DNA of 64,000 bases, from contig OZ244038.1 in NCBI GenBank assembly GCA_965215145.1, positions 90,257-154,256 on the forward strand. Direction: 5' to 3'. The stretch is from Rhodothermales bacterium. Its GTDB lineage: Bacteria; Bacteroidota; Rhodothermia; Rhodothermales; JANQRZ01. Below the pieces are notes generated by a model. That model searched no databases, was not told the DNA's origin, and saw only the letters and a program-made list of their open reading frames with translations. Below, one piece after another: positions 1 to 62,247 of this stretch. Position numbers and translations under genes: made by a program. Each line of letters opens with the position of its first letter. The first letter of the stretch is position 1.

Positions 1-358
1 GCGCCTTCGCCTGCCCGAGCAGGTCGCCCTGCGCGTCGCGGACGGTCATCGAGCGCGAGGTGTCGAGGACGAGCGCGGTCGAGGTCGCGACGCGCCCGCC
101 GAAGAGCCGCGCCCACCCGCTCTCGACGGTCGGTCCGGCGAAGGCGAGGACGAGGCACGCGAGGGCGAGCGTGCGGAGCGCGAGCAGCAGCCACTGCCGG
201 ATGCGGACGCGCCGCATCGTGCTCTTCTGGAGCTCCCGGAGGAACTGGAGCGAGGAGAAGTCCACCCGCCGCGGCTTGCGGAAGTTGAAGAGGTGGATCA
301 GGATGGGGATCGCCGCCGCGGCGAGGCCGAGCAGGACGAGGGGGTTCAAGAACGCCAT
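1..358 (-). CDS. BatA-like membrane protein, N-terminal double-transmembrane domain (5' portion; continues beyond window start)
   Basis: Absent from the ORF track because no stop lies in the window. The reverse strand from CAT 356-358 reads MAFLNPLVLLGLAAAAIPILIHLFNFRKPRRVDFSSLQFLRELQKSTMRRVRIRQWLLLALRTLALACLVLAFAGP... This is the PIxIHL / FSSLxFL two-helix anchor typical of BatA/aerotolerance-type proteins. Third positions are GC-rich. Confidence 0.6.
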   Translation of the reverse strand, partial: MAFLNPLVLLGLAAAAIPILIHLFNFRKPRRVDFSSLQFLRELQKSTMRRVRIRQWLLLALRTLALACLVLAFAGPTVESGWARLFGGRVATSTALVLDTSRSMTVRDAQGDLLGQAKA

Positions 359-435
359 GCCGCGCGAACGTCGGAAGGGGCCGGAATGATGCGCAGGACC
401 CTCCGCCGCACTTGTGGTCACACCCCCCGTTCCGC

Positions 436-465
436 TTGCATCCGCCAGACTCAACTCCGTATACT
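436..465 (+). promoter_or_regulatory. candidate sigma70-type promoter for mazEF
   Basis: TTGCAT (436-441), 18-nt spacer, TATACT (460-465), 26 nt before the mazE ATG at 492. It is a conspicuously AT-rich patch in a very GC-rich background. Confidence 0.4.
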
Positions 466-491
466 CAATGTAGACACCAGCCAAACGTACC

Positions 492-734
492 ATGAACACG
501 CTCGTCCAGAAGTGGGGCAACAGCCTCGCCATCCGGCTCCCGAAGGCTCTGGCGAGCGAGGCCCGCATCTGTCAGGGGTCGCTCGTCGATCTAAGCCTGG
601 AGGACGGCGCGCTGCGCATCCAACTCGTTTCCCCACCGGAGCTCACCCTCGATGCCCTACTCGCTGGAGTGACGGAGGAAAACCTGCATGAGGCCATCGA
701 CGCGACCGACGGGGTCGGGGCTGAGGTTCTGTGA
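492..734 (+). CDS. mazE: type II antitoxin MazE (AbrB/SpoVT fold)
   Basis: 80 aa. VQKWGNSLAIRLPK swapped-hairpin motif; the C-terminal VTEENLHEAID parallels E. coli MazE ITPENLHENID. 4-nt GTGA overlap with the next gene. Confidence 0.85.
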   Translation: MNTLVQKWGNSLAIRLPKALASEARICQGSLVDLSLEDGALRIQLVSPPELTLDALLAGVTEENLHEAIDATDGVGAEVL

Positions 735-1066
735 GCAGCTACGTGCCCCGCCGGGGCGATGCCGTCTGGCTCGACTTCAACCCTCAGACCGGACGCGAGC
801 AGGCCGGGCGGCGTCCGGCGTTCGTCGTCTCGCCCGTCTCCTACAACCGGAAGGTCGGCCTGTTCGTCGTCTGCCCGATCACGACGAAGCAGAAGGGGTA
901 CCCGTTCGAGGTGGAGATCCCGAGCGGCCACAAGGCGAGGGGCGTGATCCTGTCCGATCAGATCAAGAGCCTGGACTGGCGGGCGCGTAACGCCGCCCTG
1001 CTCTGCCCCCTGCCGGAGGCTGTGACGCAGGAGGTTCTTCAAAAGGTGAACGCCCTTCTGAAGTGA
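731..1066 (+). CDS. mazF: type II toxin MazF/PemK endoribonuclease
   Basis: 111 aa from GTG 731. YVPRRGDAVWLDFNPQTGREQAGRRPAFVVSP...TTKQKGYPFEV...DQIKSLDWRAR closely tracks E. coli MazF (YVPDMGDLIWVDFDPTKGSEQAGHRPAVVLSP...). Confidence 0.9.
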   Translation: MSSYVPRRGDAVWLDFNPQTGREQAGRRPAFVVSPVSYNRKVGLFVVCPITTKQKGYPFEVEIPSGHKARGVILSDQIKSLDWRARNAALLCPLPEAVTQEVLQKVNALLK

Positions 1067-1078
1067 CGCCGAGGAATA

Positions 1079-1288
1079 GGGACACCCCCCGTTCCCCGTC
1101 CCATCGCGGAGCCTGTGCTGAGCGCAGCCGAAGTGCTCAGGGGACGAGAAGCTGTCCCCCTTCCGAAGCTGCAAGTCCCGCCCTGCGGGGGGGGACAGTT
1201 TTGGGCGTGCCTGAGGGCGCAGGGACTCGTCCCGTAGCCCGATGCTGCAAGTCCCGCTCTGCGGGGCATGCCCGAAACGGGCGGTCCC
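1079..1288. repeat. modular hairpin element, copy A (left arm of an inverted pair around 1341-2894)
   Basis: The reverse complement aligns by eye along nearly its whole length with 2896-3092. One 64-bp stretch has a single mismatch, and one approximately 15-19-bp segment (ACGGGACGAGTCCCTGCGC vs CCGT) is present only here. The ends are GACACCCCCCG ... CGGGCGGTCCC. Internal hairpins include CTGTCCCCCTT..GGGGGACAG and GGGACTCGTCCC. Confidence 0.85.
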
Positions 1289-1340
1289 GTCGTAGCTTCG
1301 CCGCTAACCTCTGCTCCCGCCTCCATTACCGAGTCCTGCC

Positions 1341-2894
1341 ATGCGTTTCCTGCTCGCGGCCCTCACCCTGACGCTGGCCCTCGGGGCCAACGCGCAGAAC
1401 ACGTTCATCGAGGAGGCCGCCGTCACGAGCGGCGACTTCTCCAACGAGATCGGGGAAGCCTTCCCGATCCACATCACCGGCTCGGTAGCCGACACTACCG
1501 TGATCACCGGTAACACCATCGGCACTACTGATGTCGAGGTGTTCCGCTTCACCTGCGACATCGCGCTCGCACCTGAAGTCATCCTCGACATCCTCCACGT
1601 CAATGTGGAGGGCTTGACCTTCGACAGCGAGCTGGCGCTCGTCGTGGACGGAGAGTTCCCAGAGCGCGGTCTGGAGTTGCCGGCGGGAGGTGGATCAGGC
1701 TTCTACAGCCGAGTTCACCTGCCGTGTGGGCCGGGCGATGAGCTGATTGTGGCCTTCGGGCCGCGTGATCTCTCCTACCACACCGATCCTGACCGGGTCG
1801 AGTCTAGCGGTGCCTTCGGGTTTCCGGATCGAGACTACACTCTCTCGATCGTGCCACGCATGGACGAGCGTCACTACGTCGGTACGCAGGAGGAGAGCTT
1901 CACCATCTCCATGGCCGAAGACATCGGTGACATCACGTCGATCGACTTCTACTCGGTGTACATGCAATGGCACGAGGTGGAGCGCAAAATCATCCGCTTC
2001 ACCGTGCCAGACGAAGCTGCGGACACCTTCTCCATCAACGGCGACTGCAACACTCCAGCCTTCGCCTGGCTCATCGCGAGTGATGGTGAAGTGTTAGAGG
2101 TGCGACAAGGTGATTGGGATCAAACGGACCCGCGCGCAAGTGACTGGTGCCCTATCTTTGAAGCCGGAGTTCTGGCAGAAGAGGGTGGAGGTGACTATTA
2201 CCTTGCCTTCGGCATGGCCTCAGCGGGCTACGAAGATGGCGAACTCTGGAGTAATCCCGGACTGAGTTTCTACAACGTCCGGGCGGGAACAGTAGCGTGG
2301 CGCTTCGGTCACGCTCGCGCCGACATCACTGCGCTCACCGCCGATCAGCGTGACAACTCGTTCGCGCTGGGCTTCCAGCTCGCGGGCGACCAGCTCACCC
2401 AGGTGCGCTCGACCCTCACGGTGGACGGCGAGACGGTGCTCGATGAAACCCAGCTCACCGACTGGACCCTCGCCGCACCCCAGCCCTTCGAGGTGATCGC
2501 CGAGGACGTGCCCTCCGACGAGGAGGCCGAGTTCTGCGTCCAGGTCTACGGCCGCGGCAACTGGAGCGAGGCCGATCCCGTCGGCGAGCCGGAGTGCCTC
2601 ACCTTCCTCACCACCTCCGCCGAGGACGGCCCGGACGCCGAGGCGCTGTCGCTGAGCGTCCGCCCGAACCCGGCGCGGGGGGCGGCCGAGGTCGCCTTCC
2701 GGCTGGCGCGGCCTGGCCCCGCCGAGGTGGCGGTGTTCGACGTGCTGGGGCGGCGGGTGGCGGTGCTGGCGCGCGAGGCGGTCCCGGCGGGGGAGCACAC
2801 CCGGTCGGTGGCGGGGCTGGCGCCGGGGGTCTACGTGGTGCGGCTCACGTCGGGCGGCACGGTGCGGACGCAGCGGCTGACGGTGGTGCGGTAG
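1341..2894 (+). CDS. secreted protein of unknown function with T9SS (Por) C-terminal sorting domain
   Basis: 517 aa with signal peptide MRFLLAALTLTLALGANAQ. The last approximately 80 aa (LSVRPNPARGAAEVAFRL...VFDVLGRRVAVL...GVYVVRLTSGGTVRTQRLTVVR) form a typical T9SS CTD. The body has strings such as TDVEVFRFT, SIDFYSVYM and GGDYYLAFG, reminiscent of pre-peptidase C-terminal-like modules. Confidence 0.8.
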   Translation: MRFLLAALTLTLALGANAQNTFIEEAAVTSGDFSNEIGEAFPIHITGSVADTTVITGNTIGTTDVEVFRFTCDIALAPEVILDILHVNVEGLTFDSELALVVDGEFPERGLELPAGGGSGFYSRVHLPCGPGDELIVAFGPRDLSYHTDPDRVESSGAFGFPDRDYTLSIVPRMDERHYVGTQEESFTISMAEDIGDITSIDFYSVYMQWHEVERKIIRFTVPDEAADTFSINGDCNTPAFAWLIASDGEVLEVRQGDWDQTDPRASDWCPIFEAGVLAEEGGGDYYLAFGMASAGYEDGELWSNPGLSFYNVRAGTVAWRFGHARADITALTADQRDNSFALGFQLAGDQLTQVRSTLTVDGETVLDETQLTDWTLAAPQPFEVIAEDVPSDEEAEFCVQVYGRGNWSEADPVGEPECLTFLTTSAEDGPDAEALSLSVRPNPARGAAEVAFRLARPGPAEVAVFDVLGRRVAVLAREAVPAGEHTRSVAGLAPGVYVVRLTSGGTVRTQRLTVVR

Positions 2895-2895
2895 C

Positions 2896-3092
2896 GGACC
2901 CGGACCCCCCGTTTCGGCCGTGCCCCGCAGGGCGGGACTTGCAGCATCGGGCTCCGTCCTCAGGCACGCCCGAAACTGTCTCCCCCCCGCGAGCGGGACT
3001 TGCAGCTTCTGAGGGGGGACAGCTTCTCGTCCCTTGAGCACTTCGGCTGCGCTCAGCACAGGCTCCGCGATGGGACGAGGAGCGGGGGGTGC
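2896..3092. repeat. modular hairpin element, copy B (right arm, inverted relative to copy A)
   Basis: It starts 2 nt after the TAG stop (2892-2894) with GGACCCGGACCCCCCG and ends CGGGGGGTGC. See copy A for the alignment. Confidence 0.85.
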
Positions 3093-3204
3093 GAAACGGA
3101 GACCTGCCACCCCCGACCCCTACTCGGCTCGCAACCTGTGCCTACGTTGTGGGTACATCGCGTGACATCCCACCGGACCTCCTTCCCCCGTCGCCTACAC
3201 CGCC

Positions 3205-3465
3205 GTGAGCAAGACCGCCACGATCTCCGCCCGGATCGACCCCGACACGAAGCGGGCCGCCGAGGCCGTCTTCCGCGACCTCGGCCTCTCCGCCAGCCAG
3301 GCCATCACGCTGTTCTACCGGCAGGTCCAGCTCCGCCACGGCCTCCCCTTCGAGGTGAGGGTGCCGACCGAGAAGACGCGCGAGGCGCTCCGGCAGGCAG
3401 AAGCACGTGAGGACCTCGACAGCTTCGACTCCACCGACGCTCTCTTCGACGACCTCGGCGTGTGA
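3205..3465 (+). CDS. dinJ: type II antitoxin DinJ/RelB family
   Basis: 86 aa from GTG 3205. ISARIDPDTKRAAEAVFRDLGLSASQAITLFYRQV...LPFEV...DALFDDLGV parallels E. coli DinJ (VRARIDEDLKNQAADVLAGMGLTISD...LPFDL...DDLFDKLGI). Confidence 0.85.
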   Translation: MSKTATISARIDPDTKRAAEAVFRDLGLSASQAITLFYRQVQLRHGLPFEVRVPTEKTREALRQAEAREDLDSFDSTDALFDDLGV

Positions 3466-3749
3466 TGGCCCGGCGGGACAGGGTGTTACGTCGGACCTCG
3501 CAGTTCAAGCGCGACGCGAAGCTGGCGAAGCGGCGGGGGAAGAACCTCGGCAAGCTGCGCGAGGTGGTCGAGAAGCTGGCGGCGGGGGAGGTGCTGGAAG
3601 AGCGCTTCCGCGACCATGCGCTCCTCGGCGGATACCGGGGGAGCCGCGAGTGCCACCTCGAACCGGACTGGCTGCTGATCTACGAGGCGACGGCCGAGGA
3701 GGTGGTGCTGATCCGGACGGGGACGCACGCGGACCTGTTCAAGAAGTAG
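3465..3749 (+). CDS. yafQ: type II toxin YafQ (RelE superfamily mRNA interferase)
   Basis: 94 aa from ATG 3465 (TGATG overlap with the dinJ stop; the track starts at GTG 3462). FKRDAKLAKRRGKNLGKL...RDHALLGGYRGSRECHLEPDWLLIY...RTGTHADLF matches the YafQ pattern (YSKDVKLAQKRHKDMNKL...KDHPLQGSWKGYRDAHVEPDWILIY...RTGTHAALF). Confidence 0.85.
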   Translation: MARRDRVLRRTSQFKRDAKLAKRRGKNLGKLREVVEKLAAGEVLEERFRDHALLGGYRGSRECHLEPDWLLIYEATAEEVVLIRTGTHADLFKK

Positions 3750-3756
3750 CCGTGGC

Positions 3757-3893
3757 GGACCCCCCGCTCCTCGTCCCATCGCTCCGCTCAGAGGACGAGA
3801 AGCTGTCCCCCTTCTGAAGGGGGACAGTTTGGGTCGCGCCTGAGGGCGAAGGGACTCGTCCCGGAGCCCGATGCGCGGGATAAACGGGGGGTC
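3757..3893. repeat. modular hairpin element, copy C (shorter version, same orientation as A)
   Basis: It runs GGACCCCCCG ... CGGGGGGTC. It shares with copy A the modules CGTCCCATCGC, GACGAGAAGCTGTCCCCCTTCTGAAGGGGGACAG and CCTGAGGGCG.AGGGACTCGTCCC..AGCCCGATGC, but lacks two internal hairpin modules. It begins 8 nt after the yafQ TAG, and its right end overlaps the stop (3892-3894) of the convergent monooxygenase gene. Confidence 0.8.
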
Positions 3894-5403
3894 ACCCCGC
3901 CGTCTCCAGCCGGACGCCCGTGCGGAGGGCCTGCCGCTTCGGGCGGCGCCGGCCGAGCCGCCGCTCCCGCTCCACCGCCGCCTTGTACGGGTAGAAGTCC
4001 ACCTGCATCGTGTGCCGCTTCGAACGGTAGTAGCGCCGCGCCGTCCGCGCCTCCGCCCGCGCGATGGCCGCCTCCATCTCGGCCGGCTCCGGCAGCCCGG
4101 CCTCGCCCTCCAGCAGATCCGCGATCCACTCCGCCTGCGCCTCGGCCAGCGGCATGATGGCGCCGAGCGGCTGGACGAGTCCGAGGAAGTACAGCCCCGG
4201 CCGGCGGGGCATCACGACGTGCCGGAACAGCCGCACCCGGTTGTCTTCTACCTGCACCACCTCGTCGTCGAGGAACGGGAAGCTCACGTCGTAGCCCGTG
4301 GCGTAGACGATCACGTCCACCCCTTCCTCCGTCCCGTCGGCGAACCAGACGCGGTCACCCAGCAGGCGCTCGATGTTCGGCTTCACGGTGATGGCGCCGT
4401 GGGCGATCCGCCCGAGCAGCTCGTCGGAGATCGTGGGGTGCTCGGCGAGCAGGGGGTGCTCCGGCTCGGGCATCCCGTAGCCCGCCTGCCGGCCACGGCT
4501 GACGAGGAGCACCGCCCGTAGGAGCGCCCTCTGTAGCGGCACCGGGAGCCGCTGCGTCAGCGGCGTGGCGAGATTGTCGGCAGGGAGGCCGAAAAAGAAC
4601 TTCGGGATGACGTGGGCGCCGCGGCGGGTCGAGAGCAGCGTCCGCTCGGCCACGCGCGACGCCTCGACGGCGATGTCGCACGCCGAGTTGCCCGCGCCGA
4701 CGACGAGCACGCGCTTCCCGACGAGCCCCTCCGGCGTCTTGTAGGCGTGCGAGTGCATCGCCTCGCCGTCGAAGTGACCGGGGAAGTCGGGGAGCGACGG
4801 CTTCCAGTGGTGCCCGTTGGCGACGACGACGGCCTCGTAGCGCCGGGTGTCGGTCTCGCCGGTGTCGAGGTGGCGGGTGGTGACGAGGTAGCCGGCGCGC
4901 TCCCCTGTCGGGTCCGCCGGCTCGACGCGCTCGACGCGGGTGCGGAACGTGATCCGGTCGCGGAAGCCGAAGTGGTCCACGTAGTCCTCGAAGTAGGCGA
5001 GGATCTGGCGGTGGCTCGGGTAGTGGGGGTAGTCGGCCGGCATCGGGAAATCCGAATACGCCATCCGGTCCCGGTTCGTGTTGATGTGGAGCGAGCGGTA
5101 GGCCGCCGAGACGCCGTTGTCGTTGAGGTAGCGCCAGTTGCCGCCGATCCCGCTTCCCATCTCGAAGCACTCGAAGGGGATGCCGCGCTCGTGGAACGTC
5201 TTCGCCGCCACGATCCCCGACGAGCCGGCCCCGACGATGCAAACGCCGCCCCGGCCGGGCGCCCCGTCGCCGCCGATCTCGGGCCGGGGCGGGGTGACGG
5301 GTACTTCCGGCCGCCGGGGGCGGAGGCGCGTCCCACTCCGCCGTACCGCACCGTTCGTGGGTGCGGCAGAATCCGTCGGGTCGAGCCGGAGGTCGTCGGG
5401 CAT
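3892..5403 (-). CDS. class B flavin-containing monooxygenase (FMO/Baeyer-Villiger type)
   Basis: Up to 503 aa. IVGAGSSGIVAA (FAD), FPGHFDGEAMHSHAYK (FMO-identifying-like), VVGAGNSACDIA (NADPH). The first approximately 55 aa are low complexity, so the true start is uncertain. Confidence 0.8.
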   Translation of the reverse strand: MPDDLRLDPTDSAAPTNGAVRRSGTRLRPRRPEVPVTPPRPEIGGDGAPGRGGVCIVGAGSSGIVAAKTFHERGIPFECFEMGSGIGGNWRYLNDNGVSAAYRSLHINTNRDRMAYSDFPMPADYPHYPSHRQILAYFEDYVDHFGFRDRITFRTRVERVEPADPTGERAGYLVTTRHLDTGETDTRRYEAVVVANGHHWKPSLPDFPGHFDGEAMHSHAYKTPEGLVGKRVLVVGAGNSACDIAVEASRVAERTLLSTRRGAHVIPKFFFGLPADNLATPLTQRLPVPLQRALLRAVLLVSRGRQAGYGMPEPEHPLLAEHPTISDELLGRIAHGAITVKPNIERLLGDRVWFADGTEEGVDVIVYATGYDVSFPFLDDEVVQVEDNRVRLFRHVVMPRRPGLYFLGLVQPLGAIMPLAEAQAEWIADLLEGEAGLPEPAEMEAAIARAEARTARRYYRSKRHTMQVDFYPYKAAVERERRLGRRRPKRQALRTGVRLETAG

Positions 5404-5491
5404 CGGGAGCAGGGCGTTCAGCGCGGGCGACGGGAAAGTAAACGCGCCGCGCGGCGGGAGTGTCCCCGTGGGATCTTCCGTTTTGAAGGGT

Positions 5492-5544
5492 GTAGGGGCG
5501 TATGGCCATACGCCCTTACGGCGTTGAGCCTTACGGCGTTGAGC
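5492..5544. repeat. 28-bp near-perfect palindrome followed by a 15-bp tandem duplication
   Basis: GTAGGGGCGTATGG|CCATACGCCCTTAC (5492-5519, one mismatch), then CTTACGGCGTTGAGC twice (5515-5529, 5530-5544). It lies in the divergent FMO/uvrA intergenic region. Confidence 0.7.
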
Positions 5545-5640
5545 CCGAGCGCAGCGCCCCGTGCCACAGAGGTTTCATACCCCCGCTCGCATCTTCGCTC
5601 ACCCCGCCCGCGTTCGCCGACCGACCCTCCCGACCCCCGG

Positions 5641-8559
5641 ATGCCGAAGACGACCCGCCGCTCGAAGCCCGCCCACGCCCGCGACGGTGCCGCCCGCAAG
5701 GAGGCCCGCGCCGCCGACCGCTTTCACGGCCGCGACCTCGTCGTCAAGGGCGCGCGGCAGCACAACCTCAAGGACGTCGACCTCACCATCCCGAAGCGAA
5801 AGCTCGTCGTGTTCACCGGGCCGTCGGGGTCTGGGAAGTCGAGCTTGGTGTTCGACACGATCTACGCCGAGGGGCAGCGGCGCTACGTCGAGAGCCTGAG
5901 CGCCTACGCGCGGCAGTTCCTGGAGCGGATGGACAAGCCGGACGTGGACCTCATCACCGGCCTCGCCCCGGCCATCGCCATCGAGCAGCAGACGGGCACC
6001 AAGAACCCTCGAAGCACCGTCGCCACGCAGACGGAGATCTACGACTACCTCCGCCTCCTTTACGCCCGGATCGGGACGACGATCAGCCCCGTCTCCGGCG
6101 AGGCCGTCACCAAGGACAGCCCCCGCTCCGTCGCCGAGGAGTTGCAGGAGGGCCTGCCCGAGCGGACGCGGTTCTACCTCGGCTTCCCGCTGCCGCAGCA
6201 CAAGGGCCGCAAAAAGGCCGAGGAGCTGGCCGCCCTCCGCGCCCGCGGCTTCTTCCGCCTCCTCGCCCTCCCCACCCAGGCCGCGCGCAAGAAGGGCGAA
6301 GGGCCAGCGATCATCGATCTCAACGAGACGGAGCCGGAGGCGGTGAAAACGCCGGTGAAGCGGTTGCTGGTTCTCGTGGACCGCCTCGCCACGAAGCCCG
6401 GCGACGACGCCACCGCCACCCGCATCGCCGACTCGGTGGAGCAGGCGTTTCGGGAGGGGGATGAGCGCTGCGTCGTGATCACGGCGCCGAAGGACGGGCC
6501 GGGCGAGCGGCTGGAGTTCTCGGCCAAGTTCGAGCGCGACGGGATGACCTTCGAGGAGCCGACGCCGCAGCTCTTCTCCTTCAACTCCCCGCTCGGGGCG
6601 TGCCCGGTGTGCCAGGGGTTCGGGCGCGTGCCGGGGGTGGACGAGGACCTCGTCATCCCCAACCCCGACCTCTCGATCCGGCAGGGCGCCATCGCCCCGT
6701 TCCGCACGGAGCAGTGGAGCCGCTACCAGCGCAACCTGATCCGCGAGGCGGCCAAGAAGGGCTTCCCCATCGACACCCCGTACAGCAAGCTCTCCGAGGA
6801 CGAGCGGCGGTGGGTGTGGAACGGCTCCGGCGGCTACGACGGCGTGCGCGGCCTCTTCCGCCACCTGGAGAAGAAGAGCTACAAGATGCACTACCGCATC
6901 TTCGCCGCGCGCTTCCGGGGGTACACCCGCTGCGAGACGTGCGACGGCTACCGCCTCCGCCCCGAGGCCCTGTACGTCAGGGTCGGCGGTGACGAGGCGG
7001 GCGCCCCGGCGATGCACATCGGCGAGGTCTGCGAGTTCACGACGGCCGACGCGCTGGAGCACGTCGAGGCACTGGAGCTCACGGAGTACCAGGAGGCCGT
7101 GGCGGGGCGGGCGATGGAGGAGGTCCGCAAGCGGCTCCGCTACCTCGTCGAGGTCGGCCTCGACTACGTGACGCTCGACCGGCTGAGCATGACGCTCTCC
7201 GGCGGCGAGAGCCAGCGGATCAACCTCGCCACGAGCCTCGGCTCCTCGCTCGTCGGGAGCCTCTACGTTCTCGACGAGCCGACGGTCGGGCTGCACCCGC
7301 GCGACAACGAGCGGCTGATCCGCATCCTCGAGGGGCTCCGCGACATCGGCAACACGGTCCTCGTCGTCGAGCACGACGAGGCCATGATGCGGCGGGCCGA
7401 CCGGCTCGTGGACGTCGGCCCCGGCTCGGGCGTCCACGGCGGGGAGATCGTCTTTGAAGGGACGTTCGAGGAGGCGCTGAAAGACAAGAGGTCGCTGACG
7501 GGGCAGTACCTCTCCGGGAAAAAGAGCATCCCCGTCCCCGAGATCCGGCGGCCCGTGGATCCCGAGCGGGTGCTGACGGTCGTGAACGCGCGGCAGAACA
7601 ACCTCAAGCGGCTCGACGTGGATTTCCCGCTGGGGATGATTACGTGCGTCACGGGGGTCAGCGGCTCAGGCAAGAGCACGCTCGTCAACCAGACGCTCTA
7701 CCGGGGGATGCAGCGCCTCAAGGGCCTCGACCCGAGCGGCAAGATCGGTGCGCACGACGCCGTCCGAGGGCACGAACTCGTGGACCACATCGAGTTGGTA
7801 GACCAGAGCCCCATCGGTCGGACGCCCCGGAGCAACCCCGTCACCTACGTCAAGGCGTTCGACGCCATCCGCAGCCTGCTGGCTGGGACGCACCAGGCGA
7901 AGGTCCGCGGTTACAAGCCGGGCACGTTCTCCTTCAACGTCCCCGGCGGGCGCTGCGAGGTCTGCCAGGGGGACGGCGTCGTGAAGGTCGAGATGCAGTT
8001 CCTCGCCGACCTCTACCTCGAGTGCGAGGCGTGCGGTGGCCGGCGGTTCAAGCAGGACGTCCTCGAGATCCGTTGGAACGGGAAGAACGTGGACGACATG
8101 CTCTCGATGACGGTGGACGAGGCGGTGCCCTTCTTCGAGGGCGAGCGGCGGGTCTCGAACAAGCTGCAGGTACTCCAAGACGTCGGGCTCGGCTACCTCC
8201 AGCTCGGGCAGGCGTCGAACACGCTCTCCGGCGGGGAGGCGCAGCGGGTCAAGCTCGCCGCCCACCTCGGCCGGCCGGCCTCGGGCCACACGCTCTACCT
8301 CTTCGACGAGCCCACGACGGGCCTCCACTTCGACGACATCGAGAAGCTGCTGCGGGCGTTCAACGCGCTCGTGGACGAGGGCCACTCGGTCGTGCTCATC
8401 GAGCACAACCTCGACGTCATCAAGGCGTCGGACTACGTGCTCGACCTCGGGCCGGAGGGGGGGCGGCGCGGCGGGTTCGTCGTCGCGGCCGGGACGCCGG
8501 AGGAGGTCGCGGCGGACGCCGAGAGCCATACCGGGCGGTTCCTCCGCGACGCACTGTAG
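5641..8559 (+). CDS. uvrA: excinuclease ABC subunit A
   Basis: 972 aa from ATG 5641. The track ORF 4612-8559 is extended upstream through the antisense of the FMO gene. GARQHNLK, GPSGSGKSSL, zinc modules CPVCQG and CEVCQGDG, two ABC signatures LSGGESQRI and LSGGEAQRV. Confidence 0.95.
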   Translation: MPKTTRRSKPAHARDGAARKEARAADRFHGRDLVVKGARQHNLKDVDLTIPKRKLVVFTGPSGSGKSSLVFDTIYAEGQRRYVESLSAYARQFLERMDKPDVDLITGLAPAIAIEQQTGTKNPRSTVATQTEIYDYLRLLYARIGTTISPVSGEAVTKDSPRSVAEELQEGLPERTRFYLGFPLPQHKGRKKAEELAALRARGFFRLLALPTQAARKKGEGPAIIDLNETEPEAVKTPVKRLLVLVDRLATKPGDDATATRIADSVEQAFREGDERCVVITAPKDGPGERLEFSAKFERDGMTFEEPTPQLFSFNSPLGACPVCQGFGRVPGVDEDLVIPNPDLSIRQGAIAPFRTEQWSRYQRNLIREAAKKGFPIDTPYSKLSEDERRWVWNGSGGYDGVRGLFRHLEKKSYKMHYRIFAARFRGYTRCETCDGYRLRPEALYVRVGGDEAGAPAMHIGEVCEFTTADALEHVEALELTEYQEAVAGRAMEEVRKRLRYLVEVGLDYVTLDRLSMTLSGGESQRINLATSLGSSLVGSLYVLDEPTVGLHPRDNERLIRILEGLRDIGNTVLVVEHDEAMMRRADRLVDVGPGSGVHGGEIVFEGTFEEALKDKRSLTGQYLSGKKSIPVPEIRRPVDPERVLTVVNARQNNLKRLDVDFPLGMITCVTGVSGSGKSTLVNQTLYRGMQRLKGLDPSGKIGAHDAVRGHELVDHIELVDQSPIGRTPRSNPVTYVKAFDAIRSLLAGTHQAKVRGYKPGTFSFNVPGGRCEVCQGDGVVKVEMQFLADLYLECEACGGRRFKQDVLEIRWNGKNVDDMLSMTVDEAVPFFEGERRVSNKLQVLQDVGLGYLQLGQASNTLSGGEAQRVKLAAHLGRPASGHTLYLFDEPTTGLHFDDIEKLLRAFNALVDEGHSVVLIEHNLDVIKASDYVLDLGPEGGRRGGFVVAAGTPEEVAADAESHTGRFLRDAL

Positions 8560-8575
8560 TGCCGGGTAGCGCCGG

Positions 8576-9595
8576 TCAGGTGTACGAGCGGCGGCCTCGG
8601 CGCCGGGCCAACCCCGCGAGGTCGCGCCGCAGGAGGCTGCCCAACAGGCCGGCGGCTGCACGCAGACGGAGGCGCGGGTGCAGGGGGCCGCCGTAGAGAA
8701 GGGCCTCCGCATATGCCCTCCGAGCCTCGCCGAACCTGCGCTGCTGGAGGCGCTGCCGCCCCGTCTTCGTAAGAGCGCGGTGCCGCTTGAAGCCAGCGGC
8801 GTCGAGGAGGTCGCGTTCGGTGAGGGCGACGACCGGACGGACGGCCGCCGGCAGCGCCCCGAAGTGGTCGAGCACGAGTTGACAGCACCCCTCGACGATC
8901 TCGACAATCCGCTGCTGCGTAACCTGCGACGGGTGCTGGCGCCACCGCGCGAGGGGCTCGGGTACGAACACGAACGGCCCCCGTGTGGCGAGCGTCAGCC
9001 AGGTGGGCAGGTCCACGAGGGGGAGCCCATAGGGCTGCTGGAACCCGTCGATCTCGCGGAGTGCATCCACCCTCACGATCACGGTGGCGGTGACGACGCA
9101 GTTGTGGAGGTAGAGCTGGTTCAGGACGGCCCCGACCGGCTCGTTGCGGTAGTGCACGTTGCTGCAGCGCCCGCCCGAGAGCACGGCGCGGCGGAGATCG
9201 CCTACGTGGTCGTTGAAGCGGAAGGCGTCCGACCATGCGAGTACGCGCCGCGGGTCGGCTTCCATGAGCGGAAGCTGACGCGCCAGCTTCTCGGGCAGCC
9301 ACAGGTCGTCCCCCTCGAGGACCGCCACGAACGCGCCGCGCGCCTCGGCGAGCGCGCGGTTATACGTCTCCTGGAGGCGGTAGACGCCGACGTTGTCCTG
9401 CCGCAGCAGGCGGATGCGGCCGTCCTCGTCGGCCAGGGTCTGGACCACGGCCGCCGTCCCGTCGGTGCTGCCGTCGTCCACGACGAGCATCTCCCAGTCG
9501 GGCCGGGTCTGCGCCTGCACCGAGCGGATGCAGGCGCCGATGTAAGCCTCGTGGTTGTACGTCGGTGTGATGACGGTAACGGCCGGGGCGTCCAT
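8576..9595 (-). CDS. family 2 glycosyltransferase
   Basis: 339 aa from the ATG at 9595 (residue 223 of track ORF 8576-10261). VITPTYNHEAYIGACIRSV, LVVDDGSTDGT, LEGDDLW. Confidence 0.8.
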   Translation of the reverse strand: MDAPAVTVITPTYNHEAYIGACIRSVQAQTRPDWEMLVVDDGSTDGTAAVVQTLADEDGRIRLLRQDNVGVYRLQETYNRALAEARGAFVAVLEGDDLWLPEKLARQLPLMEADPRRVLAWSDAFRFNDHVGDLRRAVLSGGRCSNVHYRNEPVGAVLNQLYLHNCVVTATVIVRVDALREIDGFQQPYGLPLVDLPTWLTLATRGPFVFVPEPLARWRQHPSQVTQQRIVEIVEGCCQLVLDHFGALPAAVRPVVALTERDLLDAAGFKRHRALTKTGRQRLQQRRFGEARRAYAEALLYGGPLHPRLRLRAAAGLLGSLLRRDLAGLARRRGRRSYT

Positions 9596-9914
9596 ATTCG
9601 CGGAGGGCGTTTCTGTCCGGCCGAAGCTGAGGCTACCCGGGTGGAGCGGGGAGGGCCTAGCATGAAGGGTGCTCCGTATGCGCTGCCAATAAACGTCCGC
9701 TTCGCAGTTCGGATCAATACGCCGCCAGGGGTTCGAGGGCGCAGTGCTGTGGCGAAGCCGGAGTGAAGGCCGGCGTGGGGGGTTAAAGCTTCGGGTAAAT
9801 CGTTGTCTACGTCGCCGGTTTGTCCCCCGGCCAGCGGGCGGAGGGGCAACCGCACGGGGGTTCGTCGGTAGGTTCGGTTTTCGCCCGCTCCGCTCCCACA
9901 ACCGGCCGCCCTCG

Positions 9915-11333
9915 GTGACGACGCCACCACCGCCGCTCCGGGTCTTCTTCGTCTCGCACTCGTTCCCGCCCGAGGGCCGGCCGCTCGCCAACGTCGGGGG
10001 GATGCAGCGCGTGGCGACGGAGCTCCACGCCGCGCTCGCGGACACGCCCGGCGTCGCGCTCGACGCGGCGATCCTCCGGAGCACGTGGCGGTGGACGGCC
10101 GTACGCACGCTCCCGTTCCTGGCGGGGCTCCTGATGCGGCTCCCGCAGCGCGCCCGCGCCCACCGCGCCGACGTGGTCGTGTTCTCCTCCATCGTGACGG
10201 CCCTCGTGTGCTGGCCGCTCCGGCGGCGGCTCCGCGCGGCCGGCGTGGCGACGGCCGCCATCGTCCACGGTCTCGACGTGACGACGCCGGCCCCCCTCTA
10301 CCAGTGGTTCGTCCGGCAGGCGTTCCGCTCACTCGACCTCGTGCTGCCGGTCAGCCGCGCGACGGCCGCGGCGTGCGAGGCTCGCGGGCTGCCCCCGGAG
10401 CGCATCCACATCGTCCCGAACGGGGTCTCCCTCGACCGCTTCCTCAGCCCGCAGCGGGCGCTCGCCGTGCAGGCCACGCCGGGCGACGGTGCGCCCGCCC
10501 TCGCCGAGCCGGAGCTGGTGGTCCCGCCCCCCTCGTCGCCCCCCGCCTCCGTGCCGAAGCCCGTTACCCCCTGGGCCGAGGCGTTGAAGACGGAGAAGCT
10601 CGAGGCGCGGCGCCGGCTGGCCGGGCGGTTTGACGCGCCGGGCTTGCTGGAGGCCGAGACGCTCCTGCTGTGCAGCGTCGGCCGGCAGATCCCGCGGAAG
10701 GGGTTCGGCTGGTTCGTCCGCGAGGTGATGCCGCAGCTGCCCGAGAACGTCCACTACCTCCTCGCCGGCGAGGGGCCGACGGCCGAGGCCATCGAGGAGG
10801 CCGCCGCCGCCGTCGGCGTGGCCGGCCGGGTGCGGCGGCTCGGGTGCATCCCCGAGGCCGACCTCGCCACGCTGCTCCAGGCGGCCGACCTCATGGTGGT
10901 CCCGAACCGGCCCGTGCCGGACGACGTGGAGGGGTTCGGAGTCGTGATGCTGGAGGCGGGGCTGTGCGGGACGCCGTCGGTGGCCGCCGCGCTCGACGGC
11001 ATCCGCGACGTGATCGTGGACGGGCGGAACGGGCACCTCGTCCCGTCGGGCGCCGGCACCGCCTTCGCCGCGGCGATCCGGCGCTACGGGGACGACCGCC
11101 GGGCGCTGACGGCGCTGGCGGCGCGCACCCTCCGCTACACCGCCCGGACGTTCAACTGGCGGGCCGTGGCGGGGAGCTACCTGGAGGTGCTGCGGACGCG
11201 CCAGGGGCGGGCGCCGGTCGGCATCGAGCGGGGGGCCGCCCCGCCGCCCGTCGGGCTGCGCCCGGAGGGCCGCCTCGAGCGGGGCCCGGCCCGGCCCACC
11301 CTCGCGCCGACGGCCCCCTCGAACTCGACGTAG
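9915..11333 (+). CDS. GT-B fold glycosyltransferase (GT4-like)
   Basis: RVFFVSHSFPPEGRPLANVGGMQRV at the N-terminus and FGVVMLEAGLCGTPSVAA in the C-terminal half. The start is set at in-frame GTG 9915 to retain the first beta strand; ATG 10002 is the alternative. A Pro/Ser-rich insert and a low-complexity tail are present. Confidence 0.65.
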   Translation: MTTPPPPLRVFFVSHSFPPEGRPLANVGGMQRVATELHAALADTPGVALDAAILRSTWRWTAVRTLPFLAGLLMRLPQRARAHRADVVVFSSIVTALVCWPLRRRLRAAGVATAAIVHGLDVTTPAPLYQWFVRQAFRSLDLVLPVSRATAAACEARGLPPERIHIVPNGVSLDRFLSPQRALAVQATPGDGAPALAEPELVVPPPSSPPASVPKPVTPWAEALKTEKLEARRRLAGRFDAPGLLEAETLLLCSVGRQIPRKGFGWFVREVMPQLPENVHYLLAGEGPTAEAIEEAAAAVGVAGRVRRLGCIPEADLATLLQAADLMVVPNRPVPDDVEGFGVVMLEAGLCGTPSVAAALDGIRDVIVDGRNGHLVPSGAGTAFAAAIRRYGDDRRALTALAARTLRYTARTFNWRAVAGSYLEVLRTRQGRAPVGIERGAAPPPVGLRPEGRLERGPARPTLAPTAPSNST

Positions 11334-11343
11334 GCCCGCGCCC

Positions 11344-12558
11344 ATGCGAGCCCCAACCCCTCGGGGGGACGGCGGAGCCCCGCTCCGCGTCGCCCTCTTC
11401 ACCGGGAACTACAACCACATCCCCGACGGCGTCTCGCGGACGCTGAACCGGCTCGTGGCCTTCCTCGAGCGGCGGGGGGTCCCCGCGCTCGTCTTCGCGC
11501 CGACGGTGGAGGACCCGCCGATGGCGCACGCCGGCACGCTCGTCCCCGTCCCCTCAGTCCCCGCGCCAAAGCGGCCGGAGTACCGGCTCACGATGGGGTT
11601 CCCGCGCGAGGCCCGCGAGCGGCTCGAAGCCTTCGGCCCAACGCTCGTCCACATCGCCACGCCGGACCTACTGGGGTTCCGGGCGCTGCGGTGGGCCGGC
11701 ACGCAGGGCCTCCCGGTCGTGGCTTCCTACCACACCCACTTCACCTCGTACCTCAGGTACTACGGGCTCCAGTGGCTCGAAGGGGTGCTGTGGAGCTACG
11801 GGCGGTGGTTCTACGGGCAGTGCGAGCAGGTCTACGTCCCGAGCCGCTCGATGGCGGCGGTGCTGCGCAGCCACGAGATCGCGGGGGGCCTGCGGATCTG
11901 GGAGCGCGGCGTGGACACCGAGCGGTTCCACCCCCGCCACCGCGACCCCGCGTGGCGCCGCCGCCTCGGCATCTCCGACGACGAGGTCGTGGTGGCCTTC
12001 GTCAGCCGGCTCGTGTGGGAGAAGGGGCTCGACGTGTTCGCCGACGTGGTGGGGGGGCTGCGGGCGCAGGGGCTGCCGGCCCGGACGCTCGTCGTCGGCG
12101 ACGGCCCGGCGCGGGCGGAGCTCGAGGCGCGGCTCGGCGCGGGGGCCGTGTTCACGGGCCACCTCGAAGGCGACGCGCTCGCGCGGGCCTACGCCTCGGC
12201 CGACGTGTTCCTCTTCCCCTCCGACACCGAGACGTTCGGGAACGTGACGCTGGAGGCGATGGCGAGCGGGCTCCCCGCCGTCTGCGCCGACGCCACGGGG
12301 TCGAGCGAGCTCGTCCGGCACGACGTGACGGGCTTCCTCGCGCCGCCGGGCCAGAGCGCGGCCTTCCTGGACTACACCGCCCGGCTCGTCCGCGACGCCG
12401 AGCTCCGCACCCGCCTCGGCGCCCACGCCCTCGCCCGCGCCGAGCGCTTCAGCTGGGACGCCGTGCTGGAGCGCCTCCTCGGCTACTACCGCGAGGTCCT
12501 CGCCGGCCCCGCAGGCGCCCGGACCGAGCCCGTTCCCAGCCCCTCTCCCCTCTCCTGA
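11344..12558 (+). CDS. GT4 glycosyltransferase (SqdX/glycolipid-synthase-like N-terminus)
   Basis: 404 aa. LRVALFTGNYNHIPDGVSRTLNRLVAFLERRG... and FPSDTETFGNVTLEAMASGLPAV (the E-x7-E region). Confidence 0.85.
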   Translation: MRAPTPRGDGGAPLRVALFTGNYNHIPDGVSRTLNRLVAFLERRGVPALVFAPTVEDPPMAHAGTLVPVPSVPAPKRPEYRLTMGFPREARERLEAFGPTLVHIATPDLLGFRALRWAGTQGLPVVASYHTHFTSYLRYYGLQWLEGVLWSYGRWFYGQCEQVYVPSRSMAAVLRSHEIAGGLRIWERGVDTERFHPRHRDPAWRRRLGISDDEVVVAFVSRLVWEKGLDVFADVVGGLRAQGLPARTLVVGDGPARAELEARLGAGAVFTGHLEGDALARAYASADVFLFPSDTETFGNVTLEAMASGLPAVCADATGSSELVRHDVTGFLAPPGQSAAFLDYTARLVRDAELRTRLGAHALARAERFSWDAVLERLLGYYREVLAGPAGARTEPVPSPSPLS

Positions 12559-12571
12559 ATAGACCCGGCCT

Positions 12572-13819
12572 ATGCGTCTCTGCGACCTCACCCACGCCTA
12601 TACCGCGTCGAGCGGCGGCATCCGCACCTACATCGACGCCAAGCGGCAGTACATCCTCGACCGCACCGACGGGGAGCACCTCCTGATCGTCCCCGGCGAG
12701 CAGGACGAGGTCGAGGAGCGGGGGCGGCTGACGACGGTGCGCGTCGCCGGGCCGGTGATCCCCGGCGCGGCGCCGTACCGGCTGCTGCTGCGGATGGACA
12801 AGGTGAAGGCCGCGCTGCGGCGCTACCGCCCGGACCTCGTCGAGCTGACGAGCCTCTACACGTGCCCGTGGGCGGCGTTCTCGTACCGGAAGGACGCCGC
12901 CGAGGCCGGGCACCCCTGCGCCGTCTCGGCCTACTACCTCACCGACCTCCCCACGGCCTACGTCGAGCCCGCGGCGACGCGGCTGGGCGGCGAGGCCGTC
13001 GGGCAGTGGGCCAAGCAGCAGGCCACGCGCTACATGCAGGCGATCTACACCCGCCTCGACCTCGCCTTCACCTCGCACCCGGAGCACGTGGACCTCCTGC
13101 TCGGGCTCGGCGTCGAGGCGCCGGTCTACAACGTCCCGCTCGGCGTCGACCTCGACCTGTTCCACCCCCACCGCCGCAGCGACGACGTGCGGGCACGATT
13201 CGACGCCGGCCCGGACGACCTCGTGCTGCTCTACGCCGGCCGGCTCGACTCCGAGAAGTACGTCCACACGCTCGTGGACGCGCTGGAGCGGCTGCCGGCG
13301 GCGCTCCGCCCCCGCCTCGTGCTGGCCGGTGAGGGGCCGCACCGCGAGGCCCTCGAGGCGCGCGCAGCGGCGCTGGCCGCGTCGGACGAGCGGCGGCTGT
13401 TCGTGCTCCCCTACGTGCAGGACAAGCGGGAGCTCGCGGCGCTGATGGCGTCCGCCGACGTCTACCTCACGGCGGGGCCGCACGAGACGTTCGGGCTCTC
13501 GGTCGTCGAGGGGCAGGCGGCGGGGCTCCCAGTCGTCGGCGTCTACGCAGGCGCGCTGCGGGAGCGGGTGCCGGCGGGGACTGGCCTCCTCGGCCCCGTG
13601 GCTGACGCGGAAGCGATGGCCGCCAACATCGAGCGGGTGGCCGCCGAGCGTGCGGCGATGGGGGCGGCGGCGCGGGCGCACGTCGCAGCGTCGTTCTCGT
13701 GGGAGGCGTCGTTCGAGAAGATCTTCCGGGCTTACGGGCAGGTGATCCCCCGGTCGTCTCTCCCCGCACCGGGCGGAGACGGCGTCCGGCCTGCGCCGAC
13801 GGGCGTCTCTCCCGGCTGA
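12572..13819 (+). CDS. GT4 glycosyltransferase
   Basis: 415 aa. SSGGIRTYI near the N-terminus; PHETFGLSVVEGQAAGLPVVG in the C-terminal Rossmann half. Confidence 0.8.
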   Translation: MRLCDLTHAYTASSGGIRTYIDAKRQYILDRTDGEHLLIVPGEQDEVEERGRLTTVRVAGPVIPGAAPYRLLLRMDKVKAALRRYRPDLVELTSLYTCPWAAFSYRKDAAEAGHPCAVSAYYLTDLPTAYVEPAATRLGGEAVGQWAKQQATRYMQAIYTRLDLAFTSHPEHVDLLLGLGVEAPVYNVPLGVDLDLFHPHRRSDDVRARFDAGPDDLVLLYAGRLDSEKYVHTLVDALERLPAALRPRLVLAGEGPHREALEARAAALAASDERRLFVLPYVQDKRELAALMASADVYLTAGPHETFGLSVVEGQAAGLPVVGVYAGALRERVPAGTGLLGPVADAEAMAANIERVAAERAAMGAAARAHVAASFSWEASFEKIFRAYGQVIPRSSLPAPGGDGVRPAPTGVSPG

Positions 13820-27867: not shown

Positions 27868-27998
27868 GGGGGCAGATCGCGGGGGGAGCATCCTACCCGC
27901 CCGCTGGAGCCCGGTTCACCCGCCCGTGCTGAGGGCGCTACCCACCTACGGGCCTCCGGCCCTATACTGACCCGTCGCTCCTCGCCGCCTCCGATCCG

Positions 27999-30710: not shown

Positions 30711-31639
30711 CCGACCGCCCTGCCCTCTTCGACCAGCTCCAGGCCCTCACCACCGAGCAGCGCAACCCCCGCTCGATGCGGATCGACGCCGCCTCGACCG
30801 AGGAGATCCTCCGGATCATCAACGACGAGGACGCCCGCGTCGCCCCCGCCGTGCGGGACCAGCTCCCCTACATGGCCGAGGCCGTGGAAACCGTGGTGGA
30901 CGCCTTCAAGCGGGGCGGGCGGCTGTTCTACGCCGGGGCCGGGACGAGCGGGCGCCTCGGCATCCTCGACGCCGCCGAGTGCCCGCCGACGTTCGGGACG
31001 CCGCCGGAGCTGGTGCAGGGGCTGATCGCCGGCGGCAAGCCCGCGGTCTTCCAGGCGCAGGAGGGCGCCGAGGACCACGAGGAGAATGGGGTCGCCGCGC
31101 TGGAGGAAGCGGGGGTGACTCCGGAGGATGTCGTCTGTGGCATTGCAGCGAGCCGACGGACGCCGTTCGTGGTCGGCGCCGTCAAGCACGCCAAGACCCT
31201 CGGTTGCCCGACGCTGTTCGTGACGTGCAACCCCCGCGAGCAGTTCGACCTCCACGAATGGGTGGACACGGCGATCTGCGTGGCCGTCGGGCCGGAGGTC
31301 ATCATGGGGTCCACGCGGATGAAGAGCGGGACGGCGCAGAAGCTCGTCCTCAACATGCTCACGACCGCGGCGATGGTGCGGATGGGGAAGGTCTACGAGA
31401 ACATGATGATCGACCTCCAGATGACCAACCAGAAACTCGTCGAGCGCTCGAAGCGGATCGTGATGACGGTCACGGGGCTGGACTACGAGGAGGCGGCGCG
31501 GGTGCTGGAGGCGGCCGGCGGCCACGTCAAGACCGCCCTCGTGATGACCCTCGCCGAGGTCGACGCCGACGCGGCGCGGGTCCGGCTGGAGCGCGCCGGC
31601 GGGTTCGTCCGGCAGGCCATCGCGGGAGAAGGCACATAG
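30707..31639 (+). CDS. murQ: N-acetylmuramic acid 6-phosphate etherase
   Basis: 310 aa from GTG 30707 (GTGA overlap with the CHAT gene stop; the track buries it in ORF 29141-31639). LTTEQRNPRS, FYAGAGTSGRLG (SIS), GSTRMKSGTAQK. Confidence 0.9.
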   Translation: MTDRPALFDQLQALTTEQRNPRSMRIDAASTEEILRIINDEDARVAPAVRDQLPYMAEAVETVVDAFKRGGRLFYAGAGTSGRLGILDAAECPPTFGTPPELVQGLIAGGKPAVFQAQEGAEDHEENGVAALEEAGVTPEDVVCGIAASRRTPFVVGAVKHAKTLGCPTLFVTCNPREQFDLHEWVDTAICVAVGPEVIMGSTRMKSGTAQKLVLNMLTTAAMVRMGKVYENMMIDLQMTNQKLVERSKRIVMTVTGLDYEEAARVLEAAGGHVKTALVMTLAEVDADAARVRLERAGGFVRQAIAGEGT

Positions 31640-31640: not shown

Positions 31641-31758
31641 GGACCCCCCGTTTTTCTTGCGTCGCCTTCGGCTCCGGCTGCGAAAAACCGTCCCCCTTAA
31701 CAAGGGGGACAGCTCGTCCGGCCTTGAGCGCAGCGATGGCCGGACGAGCGGGGGGTCC
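31641..31758. repeat. modular hairpin element, copy D
   Basis: Starts 2 nt after the murQ TAG. Terminal inverted repeats GGACCCCCCG (31641-31650) and CGGGGGGTCC (31749-31758). Internal hairpins GTTTTTC..GAAAAAC, GTCCCCCTTAACAAGGGGGAC and CTCGTCCGGCC..GGCCGGACGAG. Confidence 0.75.
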
Positions 31759-43512: not shown

Positions 43513-43517
43513 GGGCG
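43496..43517. repeat. direct repeat, left copy (contains the ATPase stop codon)
   Basis: GCCGCTACGGTGGCTGAGGGCG. 17 of 22 positions are identical to 44316-44337. Confidence 0.7.
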
Positions 43518-43546
43518 TTAAATTGCGACAACCAGACTCAGGAGAC

Positions 43547-43831
43547 ATGGTCGACGTAAAGCAGGCGGTGCAAGCCGCTACCAGCTATTTCGAAGATTTA
43601 TACTCTCAGGAACTGGCGAGTTGGTTGCGTCTCGAAGAGGTGAAGCTCTCGGAGGACGAGAGCCAATGGCAGATTACGTTGAGCTTCGTTGACGAATCTG
43701 AGTCTCACCCGCTTAGTCCCGTCCTGGGTTCGGCACCACGGCATTATAAGATTTTTGAAATCGATGCAGACTCGGGGAAGGTCAGGTCTATGTTAATCCG
43801 CAAAATCAATGACACGTCGGTATCTCAATGA
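43547..43831 (+). CDS. small hypothetical protein (candidate partner of the PIN-like protein)
   Basis: 94 aa from ATG 43547 (the track start GTG 43505 lies inside the direct repeat). No RHH, AbrB or HTH signature seen. Overlaps the next gene by 23 nt. Confidence 0.5.
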   Translation: MVDVKQAVQAATSYFEDLYSQELASWLRLEEVKLSEDESQWQITLSFVDESESHPLSPVLGSAPRHYKIFEIDADSGKVRSMLIRKINDTSVSQ

Positions 43832-62175: not shown

Positions 62176-62247
62176 AACGCCTCAGGATAAACTTCGAGTG
62201 GGTTGGGTTAAAACCTAACTTCTTAAGAAGTGACTACGGAGGCCGCC

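Follow-up and report, generated by a model that had tools for sequence, protein, structure and literature searches.

What a pair of inverted repeats of about 200 bp is doing around a single gene is the question raised by one end of a 64,000-nucleotide stretch of contig OZ244038.1 from a Rhodothermales bacterium (the window, numbered here from its first letter). The two arms enclose a gene for a secreted protein with a type IX secretion system (T9SS) sorting domain, referred to below as the cargo gene, and the whole lies between two toxin-antitoxin pairs. The original prediction read this geometry as a composite cassette or an invertible or excisable segment. [quoted passage not shown]

Inverted arms and the repeat family to which they belong

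In a global alignment, the reverse complement of 1081-1288 matched 2902-3092 at 182 positions, with 13 mismatches and 22 gap columns, i.e., 93.3% identity with gaps excluded and 83.9% with gaps included. Blastn aligned the arms with 85.4% identity (206 columns, 17 of them gapped; E=1e-65), and a repeat search of the window recovered them as two paired segments, 1083-1222/2952-3091 (140 nt, 91%) and 1233-1287/2902-2956 (55 nt, 91%). The longest perfect run common to the arms is 43 nt, ending at 1139, and the main indel between them is a 15-nt deletion located in the right arm. These comparisons confirmed that the inverted repeat is real at these coordinates and far beyond chance. The arms had been placed by eye at 1079-1288 and 2896-3092, with an identity of 85-90% and one indel of 15-19 bp, and these estimates proved accurate. 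As had also been predicted, the arms bracket exactly one open reading frame (ORF; 1341-2894), and its product matches the T9SS sorting domain.

Self-BLAST of the window showed that the arms belong to the sole dispersed repeat family in the 64 kb; its remaining matches were a duplication internal to uvrA and a weak palindrome within coding sequence. When a covariance model (CM) and an nhmmer profile were built from the four window copies, both recovered just these four copies in the window, with 94-147 bits and E=1e-20 to 1e-33. Copy 1, the left arm (1081-1288, plus strand, 208 nt; CM 99 bits, E=9e-22), and copy 2, the right arm (2902-3092, minus strand, 191 nt, carrying the 15-nt deletion; CM 94 bits, E=1.5e-20), are long variants. 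Copy 3 (3757-3894, plus strand, 138 nt; CM 147 bits, E=2e-33) and copy 4 (31641-31758, minus strand, 118 nt; CM 115 bits, E=1e-25) are short variants. Copy 3 has the same orientation as copy 1, and copy 2 is inverted relative to both. Copies 3 and 4 had been overlooked in the original prediction, as had a possible solo remnant of the element's A-end at 420-447 (plus strand), in which ACACCCCCCGTTCC at 420-433 is identical to 1082-1095 and which the repeat search matched as family D3 (75% over 24 nt). The octamer ACCCCCCG lies within this possible solo end at 422, and all five plus-strand occurrences of the octamer in the window are located at element ends. A cmscan of 1-6000 against Rfam at E<=1 gave no match. 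Direct repeats of 28 nt spaced 76 nt apart, for which a CRISPR-like reading was tried and rejected, are two modules of one repeat copy.

With lengths of 118-208 bp, the copies are near-palindromes that each fold into several hairpins. The terminal inverted repeats (TIRs), GGACCCCCCG...CGGGGGGTCC (GACACCCCCCG...CGGGCGGTC in copy 1), make an 8-bp closing stem in all four copies. Hairpin 1 is formed by CTCGTCC...GGACGAG, and copy 4 preserves this pairing via four compensatory double changes. Hairpin 2 has 12 bp, GCTGTCCCCC-loop-GGGGGACAG, and is followed by TTT(T/G/C); the aligned copies also have a 3' hairpin region in common. The single-strand folds were more stable than those of shuffled controls (z = -3.1 to -4.7). 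The opposite strand of the short copies 3 and 4 also matched the profile and the CM (E=1e-8 to 1e-9), indicating that the element is an imperfect (degenerate) palindrome. The element therefore resembles REPINs in that GC-rich palindromes, arranged as an inverted doublet, form a long hairpin, and its size, its non-coding nature and the lack of a transposase gene within the copies are those of a MITE. The reading frames that cross the copies are long, compositionally atypical ORFs that overlap real genes in other frames and have no recognised domain.

The short core of the element is ~120-140 nt, and the arms are a long form of it with three additional modules of 22-24 nt sited in loops. These are a 24-nt module, GGAGCCTGTGCTGAGCGCAGCCGA, at 1108-1131 in copy 1 and 3043-3066 in copy 2, and a 22-nt hairpin module, CTGCAAGTCCCGCYCTGCGGGG, which occurs twice in each arm (1169-1190 and 1245-1266 in copy 1; 2984-3005 and 2923-2944 in copy 2) and was not found in the window outside the long copies. 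The three modules are absent from copies 3 and 4 and from the copy found in relatives (see below). Because they are confined to the arms, the arms are sister copies of one derived long variant.

The relatives' copy, a diverged member of the family (73-78% identity), lies in the spacer between a GlnRS and an acetyltransferase gene on three contigs (L031-L033) of one metagenome, and in L031 the two halves of the repeat form one long palindrome. L031 and L032 are from near-identical strains that can be told apart at the hairpin-1 loop, where L032 (~13610-13632; alignment columns 412-433) has an insert of 22 nt, ACCGCGAAGCGACGGCGTAGCC; this is the loop that carries the 24-nt module in the long copies of the window. 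Hairpin loops appear to be hotspots for ~22-nt indels. We also observed in L031, at 13330-13520, a palindrome, GTCATCCTGAGCGG...GAAGGATCTC / GAGATCCTTCGAC...GCTCAGGATGAC, nested in the hairpin-2 loop of the repeat copy; its CTGAGCG..GAAG motif is similar to the 24-nt module found in the arms.

The copies are placed directly behind the stop codon of a plus-strand gene, in either orientation, and each of the three consecutive spacers of the islet formed by the toxin-antitoxin pairs and the cargo gene holds one. Copy 1 begins 14 nt past the mazF stop and copy 2 begins 7 nt past the TAG of the cargo gene. Copy 3 begins 7 nt past the yafQ TAG and occupies the entire spacer between yafQ and a convergent flavin monooxygenase (FMO) gene, its right TIR overlapping the FMO stop codon, TGA, at 3892-3894. 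Copy 4 begins 1 nt past the TAG of a SIS/GKRP-type (MurQ-like) gene and is located ~80 nt upstream of mfd/TRCF; these neighbors are housekeeping genes, unrelated to toxin-antitoxin or T9SS functions. According to the original prediction, the same repeats around most genes of the genome would have meant no specific association with the enclosed gene, and this was borne out in part, as the repeat occurs also behind yafQ and between housekeeping genes 28 kb away. In all four copies a TAG is found 1-10 nt upstream of the left TIR (1076-1078, 2892-2894, 3747-3749 and 31637-31639, respectively), in three of them as the stop of the upstream gene, while a TAG that close occurs at only 4-6% of window positions. 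This adjacency suggests insertion targeting, or selection for placement at gene ends. For both YafQ and the T9SS tail, the Pfam match runs to the last profile positions, showing that the copies abut native gene ends and that the genes are not truncated.

The enclosed gene, its islet and the surrounding genome

The cargo gene (1341-2894, plus strand) encodes a secreted protein of 517 aa with an N-terminal signal-like segment and a T9SS tail. Its only Pfam match is Por_Secre_tail, at residues 442-514, with 26.7 bits, slightly below the gathering score of 27. Matches in a homolog search were confined to this C-terminal sorting domain and covered at most 26% of the protein, which forms a cluster of one in ~15 billion sequences (5.8 billion clusters). 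An exhaustive HMMER search with residues 20-440 against 1.84 billion representatives found two relatives only, with 29% and 34% identity. One of these has a T9SS tail and is encoded on a contig with a GC of 45%; the contig is from metagenome ERZ25070591, the sample that also yielded the related contigs, and no repeats were found at this locus (L036). The composition of the cargo gene is mosaic: GC is 56-58% and GC at third codon positions (GC3) is 0.65-0.73 at 1640-2240, against a window mean GC of 71% (sd 4.4), the stretch at 1800-2300 likewise has a GC of 56-58%, and the GC3 of the T9SS tail is 0.98. Structure prediction, which had been proposed as a way to annotate the cargo, was partly informative. 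A single-sequence AlphaFold model was unusable (pLDDT, the predicted confidence score, of 35), and a model from a three-sequence alignment reached a pLDDT of 57, with residues 205-517 moderately confident and all-beta. A Foldseek search of the PDB with this model returned generic beta-sandwich matches only, with template-modeling (TM) scores below 0.2, and no specific fold match. As modeled, the cargo is an orphan-like secreted beta-sandwich protein, and its gene was probably acquired or is rapidly evolving.

To the left of the arms lie a gene for a BatA N-terminal domain (2-358, minus strand; Pfam) and a mazEF module with its own promoter region (458-1071, plus strand), delimited by homology to a mazEF block of relatives. 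It comprises mazE (492-734, plus strand; MazE_antitoxin, 2.9e-9) and mazF of the PemK/MazF type (731-1066, plus strand; PemK_toxin, 2.8e-26). To the right are relB/dinJ (3205-3465, plus strand; RelB, 3.3e-14), yafQ (3462-3749, plus strand; YafQ_toxin, 4.2e-32) and the FMO gene (3892-5403, minus strand; Pfam). Pfam therefore agrees with the prediction of mazEF on the left and dinJ-yafQ on the right. PADLOC found no defence-system match among the five islet proteins.

Relatives of MazE with at least 90% identity are encoded on L031-L033, where the mazEF block is located between the GluRS and GlnRS genes and has no adjoining repeat. The DNA homology to these contigs covers exactly 458-1071, at 85-86%. 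This sequence comparison demonstrates that mazEF is a discrete block and portable. It is bracketed by ACACCCCCCGTTCC, the A-end of the element, which is repeated directly and exactly over 14 nt at 420-433 and 1082-1095, and the homology to the relatives ends inside of both repeats, by 24 nt on the left and by 10 nt on the right. The 14-nt repeat could be a remnant of an older copy of the element or a footprint of the arrival of mazEF.

UvrA of the window is ~75% identical to UvrA of Rubrivirga and Rubricoccus and 82-84% identical to that of uncultured relatives, which places the organism in the Rubricoccaceae (Rhodothermales). Four relatives have a gene for a KaiC-like ATPase before uvrA and two GT4 glycosyltransferase genes directly after it, and alignment of the window to them is limited to uvrA (DNA identity of 80-84%) and the two GT4 genes. 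Window positions 1-5700 (BatA, islet and FMO) have no counterpart at the uvrA locus of these four relatives, and the repeat family is absent from ~90 kb of their sequence. An orthologous empty site was not found, the region upstream of uvrA being not syntenic in the four relatives, and a search for FMO homologs as a guide to synteny was uninformative, with best matches only ~65% identical.

Several other features of the window and of its relatives were observed. Between uvrA and the GT4 pair, ~2.8 kb at 8552-11370 includes a minus-strand GT2 glycosyltransferase gene; since uvrA and the GT4 pair are adjacent in the four relatives, this segment represents a second lineage-specific insertion beside uvrA. 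Toxin-antitoxin pairs occur at varying spots near uvrA in relatives (FitA/PIN in L038 and a ParE-like one in L037). The lowest GC in the window, 52-58%, is found at 43400-44300, where the ORFs at 43505-43831 and 43809-44315 have no Pfam match, and this segment may be foreign DNA. A 925-aa CHAT-domain protein is encoded at 27933-30707 and a WYL/WCX/HTH regulator at 58543-59532, domain types often linked to defence or signaling. Finally, gidB, gidA/mnmG and mnmE are consecutive on the minus strand at 59610-63702, a row which indicates that the window is probably near the chromosomal replication origin.

Weighing the explanations

If the arms are members of a dispersed intergenic repeat family, the long variant would have been copied into the neighboring spacer by local duplication or transposition, resulting in the inverted pair. 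Many MITE, ERIC and REP repeats are found at gene 3' ends, where they are co-transcribed and affect mRNA stability (PMC3184786). By the precedent of ERIC, REP and Correia elements, the copies of the window would be co-transcribed as stem-loops in the 3' untranslated region (3' UTR), where they would affect the stability or processing of 3' ends and serve as insulation between adjacent modules. A multi-hairpin in the 3' UTR is, by this analogy, the likely molecular effect. As a by-product, arms of 200 bp could support rare homologous inversion.

Several results weigh against this explanation. Only four copies are visible, three of which lie within 2.8 kb, so dispersal across the genome is an extrapolation. 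Searches of public collections, of genomes and of metagenomes, produced chance hits only, whether made with a 19-mer core or with a TIR pattern: the core (GGACGAGAAGCTGTCCCCC) gave 14 single hits among species-representative genomes, in unrelated Clostridia, Streptomyces and others, and a TIR-plus-box pattern gave 16 single hits among metagenome contigs, all of which were judged to be chance because none extends past the pattern by BLAST. Inspection of the flanks revealed no target-site duplication around the four copies or around the arm-gene-arm unit, whose outer flanks (...GAGGAATAGG on the left and GCGAAACGGAG... on the right) have no common repeat. Old copies often lose such duplications, and only 40% of MITEAba12 copies retain theirs (PMC6382973). 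No transposase, recombinase or integrase was detected among ~45 ORFs scanned across the 64-kb window, in agreement with the earlier remark that no recombinase is nearby; this result counts for a repeat family, and what counts against it is that no cognate insertion sequence or REP-associated tyrosine transposase (RAYT) was found, the scanned ORFs giving no Y1_Tnp match. A consensus terminator scan was blank at copies 1-3 and found only weak sites at copy 4, and a scan with the sigma-70 promoter consensus likewise found nothing at copies 1-3 and weak matches at copy 4. Moreover, the arms are mutually closest and surround a compositionally foreign orphan gene, which fits a composite of two MITEs equally well. 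We did not file the element as a strict MITE, because the search for target-site duplications found none and no cognate transposase is known, and we did not assign it to the REPINs, because membership needs a RAYT gene and the scanned ORFs contained none.

The composite of two MITEs, comparable to TIME-COMP and IMU units, is the strongest alternative, and we consider it unlikely though worth keeping in mind. It holds that two copies captured the orphan T9SS gene and that the 2.0-kb unit at 1081-3092 moved between mazEF and dinJ-yafQ by means of a transposase encoded elsewhere. Two inverted sister copies of the long variant do bracket exactly one gene, the core has a GC of 56-58% against the window mean of 71%, and the near-orphan gene has its nearest homolog in a 45%-GC organism. 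The experimentally mobile TIME-COMP1 shares this geometry, with oppositely oriented MITEs around a 1.9-kb core of lower GC that contains no transposition gene (PMC4133298). However, the unit has no flanking direct repeat, whereas TIME-COMP and IMU leave 5-bp duplications, and the window yielded no transposase whose TIRs match. In addition, the T9SS tail of the cargo is native-like (GC3 0.98), the unit was found nowhere else, the cargo protein is a cluster of one, and the adjacent spacers also hold copies, so that independent or local insertions suffice. Some local event tying the arms to the enclosed gene is plausible. Of the composite-cassette or invertible geometry originally proposed, the arms and the single gene between them stand, and no target-site duplication was found, nor any transposase or recombinase among the ~45 scanned ORFs.

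Inversion is a much less probable explanation. In that case, the arms would drive homologous or recombinase-mediated inversion of 1289-2901 and serve as a phase-variation switch for the secreted protein. Their 93% identity over aligned positions and their 43-nt perfect run are enough for low-frequency RecA-dependent recombination, and surface or secreted proteins such as the cargo belong to a class that is often phase-variable. However, the scanned ORFs include no invertase or tyrosine recombinase, and the 13 mismatches and the 15-nt deletion between the arms speak against frequent exchange or gene conversion. Both arms present the B-end inward and the gene would flip together with its 52-nt leader, so that the two orientations would be equivalent for arm-borne signals. 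Furthermore, copy 4 occurs without an inversion partner. Switches of the Hin/Gin or Bacteroides type have an adjacent recombinase, which is not seen here, and the arms are complete 190-208-nt copies around a segment that consists of a whole gene and its leader.

An equally slight chance is given to a more speculative idea, in which the repeats would be folded recombination or target sites of an undescribed Rhodothermales cassette-shuffling system with an unlinked enzyme; modules would be inserted precisely at stop codons, and the sites would be remodeled by mini-elements of ~22 nt that insert into loops. The hints that prompt it are the one copy per islet spacer, the TAG beside the TIR in four of four copies, the 14-nt repeat around mazEF and the 22-nt loop indel between strains. 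The least probable of all is an array of cassettes like those of integrons or of clusters of attC sites lacking an integrase (CALIN), in which mazEF, the cargo gene and dinJ-yafQ would each end in an attC-like folded site served by an unlinked recombinase; three consecutive short accessory modules are indeed each followed by a structured imperfect palindrome of attC size, the portable mazEF at 458-1071 is bracketed by the 14-nt direct repeat of the element end, and chromosomal integrons typically contain toxin-antitoxin cassettes that have promoters of their own, but the attC reading was ruled out by core-site order and site polarity, as core sites of the R''/R' type (RYYYAAC...GTTRRRY) are missing and the ends, ...CCCCCCGTT...AACGGGGGG..., have the opposite order (CCCCCCGTT(C/T)...AAACGGGGGG, with GTT on the 5' side and pyrimidines after it), copy 2 is inverted with respect to copies 1 and 3 while attC arrays keep one polarity, copy 4 is solitary between housekeeping genes, no integrase was seen among the scanned ORFs, and the relatives' mazEF block has no such site.

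Should the arms indeed be members of an intergenic repeat family, they would add another lineage-specific palindromic repeat family, in an uncultured Rubricoccaceae bacterium, and would illustrate that a gene between inverted repeats can arise merely by a dispersed repeat occupying neighboring spacers. For annotation, the label of composite transposon should be withheld from such arms unless target duplications or a transposase accompany them. The placement at TAG stops in a 71%-GC genome, the 22-24-nt loop modules and the copy that ends each accessory module are noteworthy for whole-genome surveys, and the repeats might mark or promote the insertion of toxin-antitoxin and orphan genes.

Comparison with known repeat systems

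Among known repeats, the ERIC elements (also called IRU) of Enterobacteriaceae, 127-bp imperfect palindromes classed as MITEs, resemble the present element in having size variants that arise through internal insertions or deletions at fixed sites. Insertion variants of ERIC were reportedly described by Hulton in 1991 and by Wilson & Sharp in 2006. The two differ in having no sequence similarity and in the host, which is here a 71%-GC Rhodothermales bacterium. Like the present element, ERIC copies are non-coding and intergenic, ~120-200 bp long and bounded by TIRs, are often located at gene 3' ends, where they are co-transcribed as the present copies would be, and have a fold that is stable in either orientation (PMC3184786). 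ERIC-type copies have 5'-TA-3' at both termini, as a motif or a duplication (PMC3184786), and no such duplication was seen in the present element.

REPINs and REP-BIMEs likewise consist of GC-rich hairpins arranged as inverted doublets that form one long hairpin or a 'clover', and they are extragenic, leave singlet remnants (compare 420-447) and cluster in neighboring spacers (PMC3116915). However, REPINs are made of two REPs of ~20-25 nt with a short spacer and are tied to a REP-flanked RAYT gene, while the present element is larger and multi-branched and the scanned window ORFs include no Y1 transposase.

The arm-gene-arm unit has its closest counterparts in TIME-COMP1/2 of Pseudomonas and in the IMU-flanked integron, in which a 2-4-kb core that lacks transposition genes and has a GC below that of its surroundings lies between two non-autonomous TIR-bearing copies, oriented alike or oppositely (PMC4133298, PMC3184786). 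Those systems have 5-bp target duplications and have been shown to transpose, and their cognate transposase is known (Tn3 family or ISSod9-like); for the present unit no duplication, transposase or second location was found.

The small dispersed repeats (21-27 nt) of Nostoc, reportedly described by Elhai et al. in 2008 and mentioned in PMC3116915, offer a parallel for the loop modules. As with those repeats, very small sequences nest inside others while the fold is kept: CTGCAAGTCCCGCYCTGCGGGG is found twice in loops of each long copy, and a differing 22-nt insert separates two near-identical related strains at the same loop. The 22-nt module differs from them in being restricted, within the window, to the long copies and in giving no sign of independent mobility.

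The Correia elements of Neisseria (CREE/NEMIS) are 100-160 bp long with TIRs, have long and short forms that differ by an internal segment, lie near the ends of genes and have effects on transcripts (PMC3184786, PMC2229807), as the element described here does or is expected to do. Additional features of Correia elements, none of them seen here, are 26-nt TIRs, a TA duplication, a site for integration host factor (IHF) and hundreds of copies. Altogether, the inverted-repeat feature itself is of an ordinary kind, and the element is new within the known class of small palindromic intergenic repeats.

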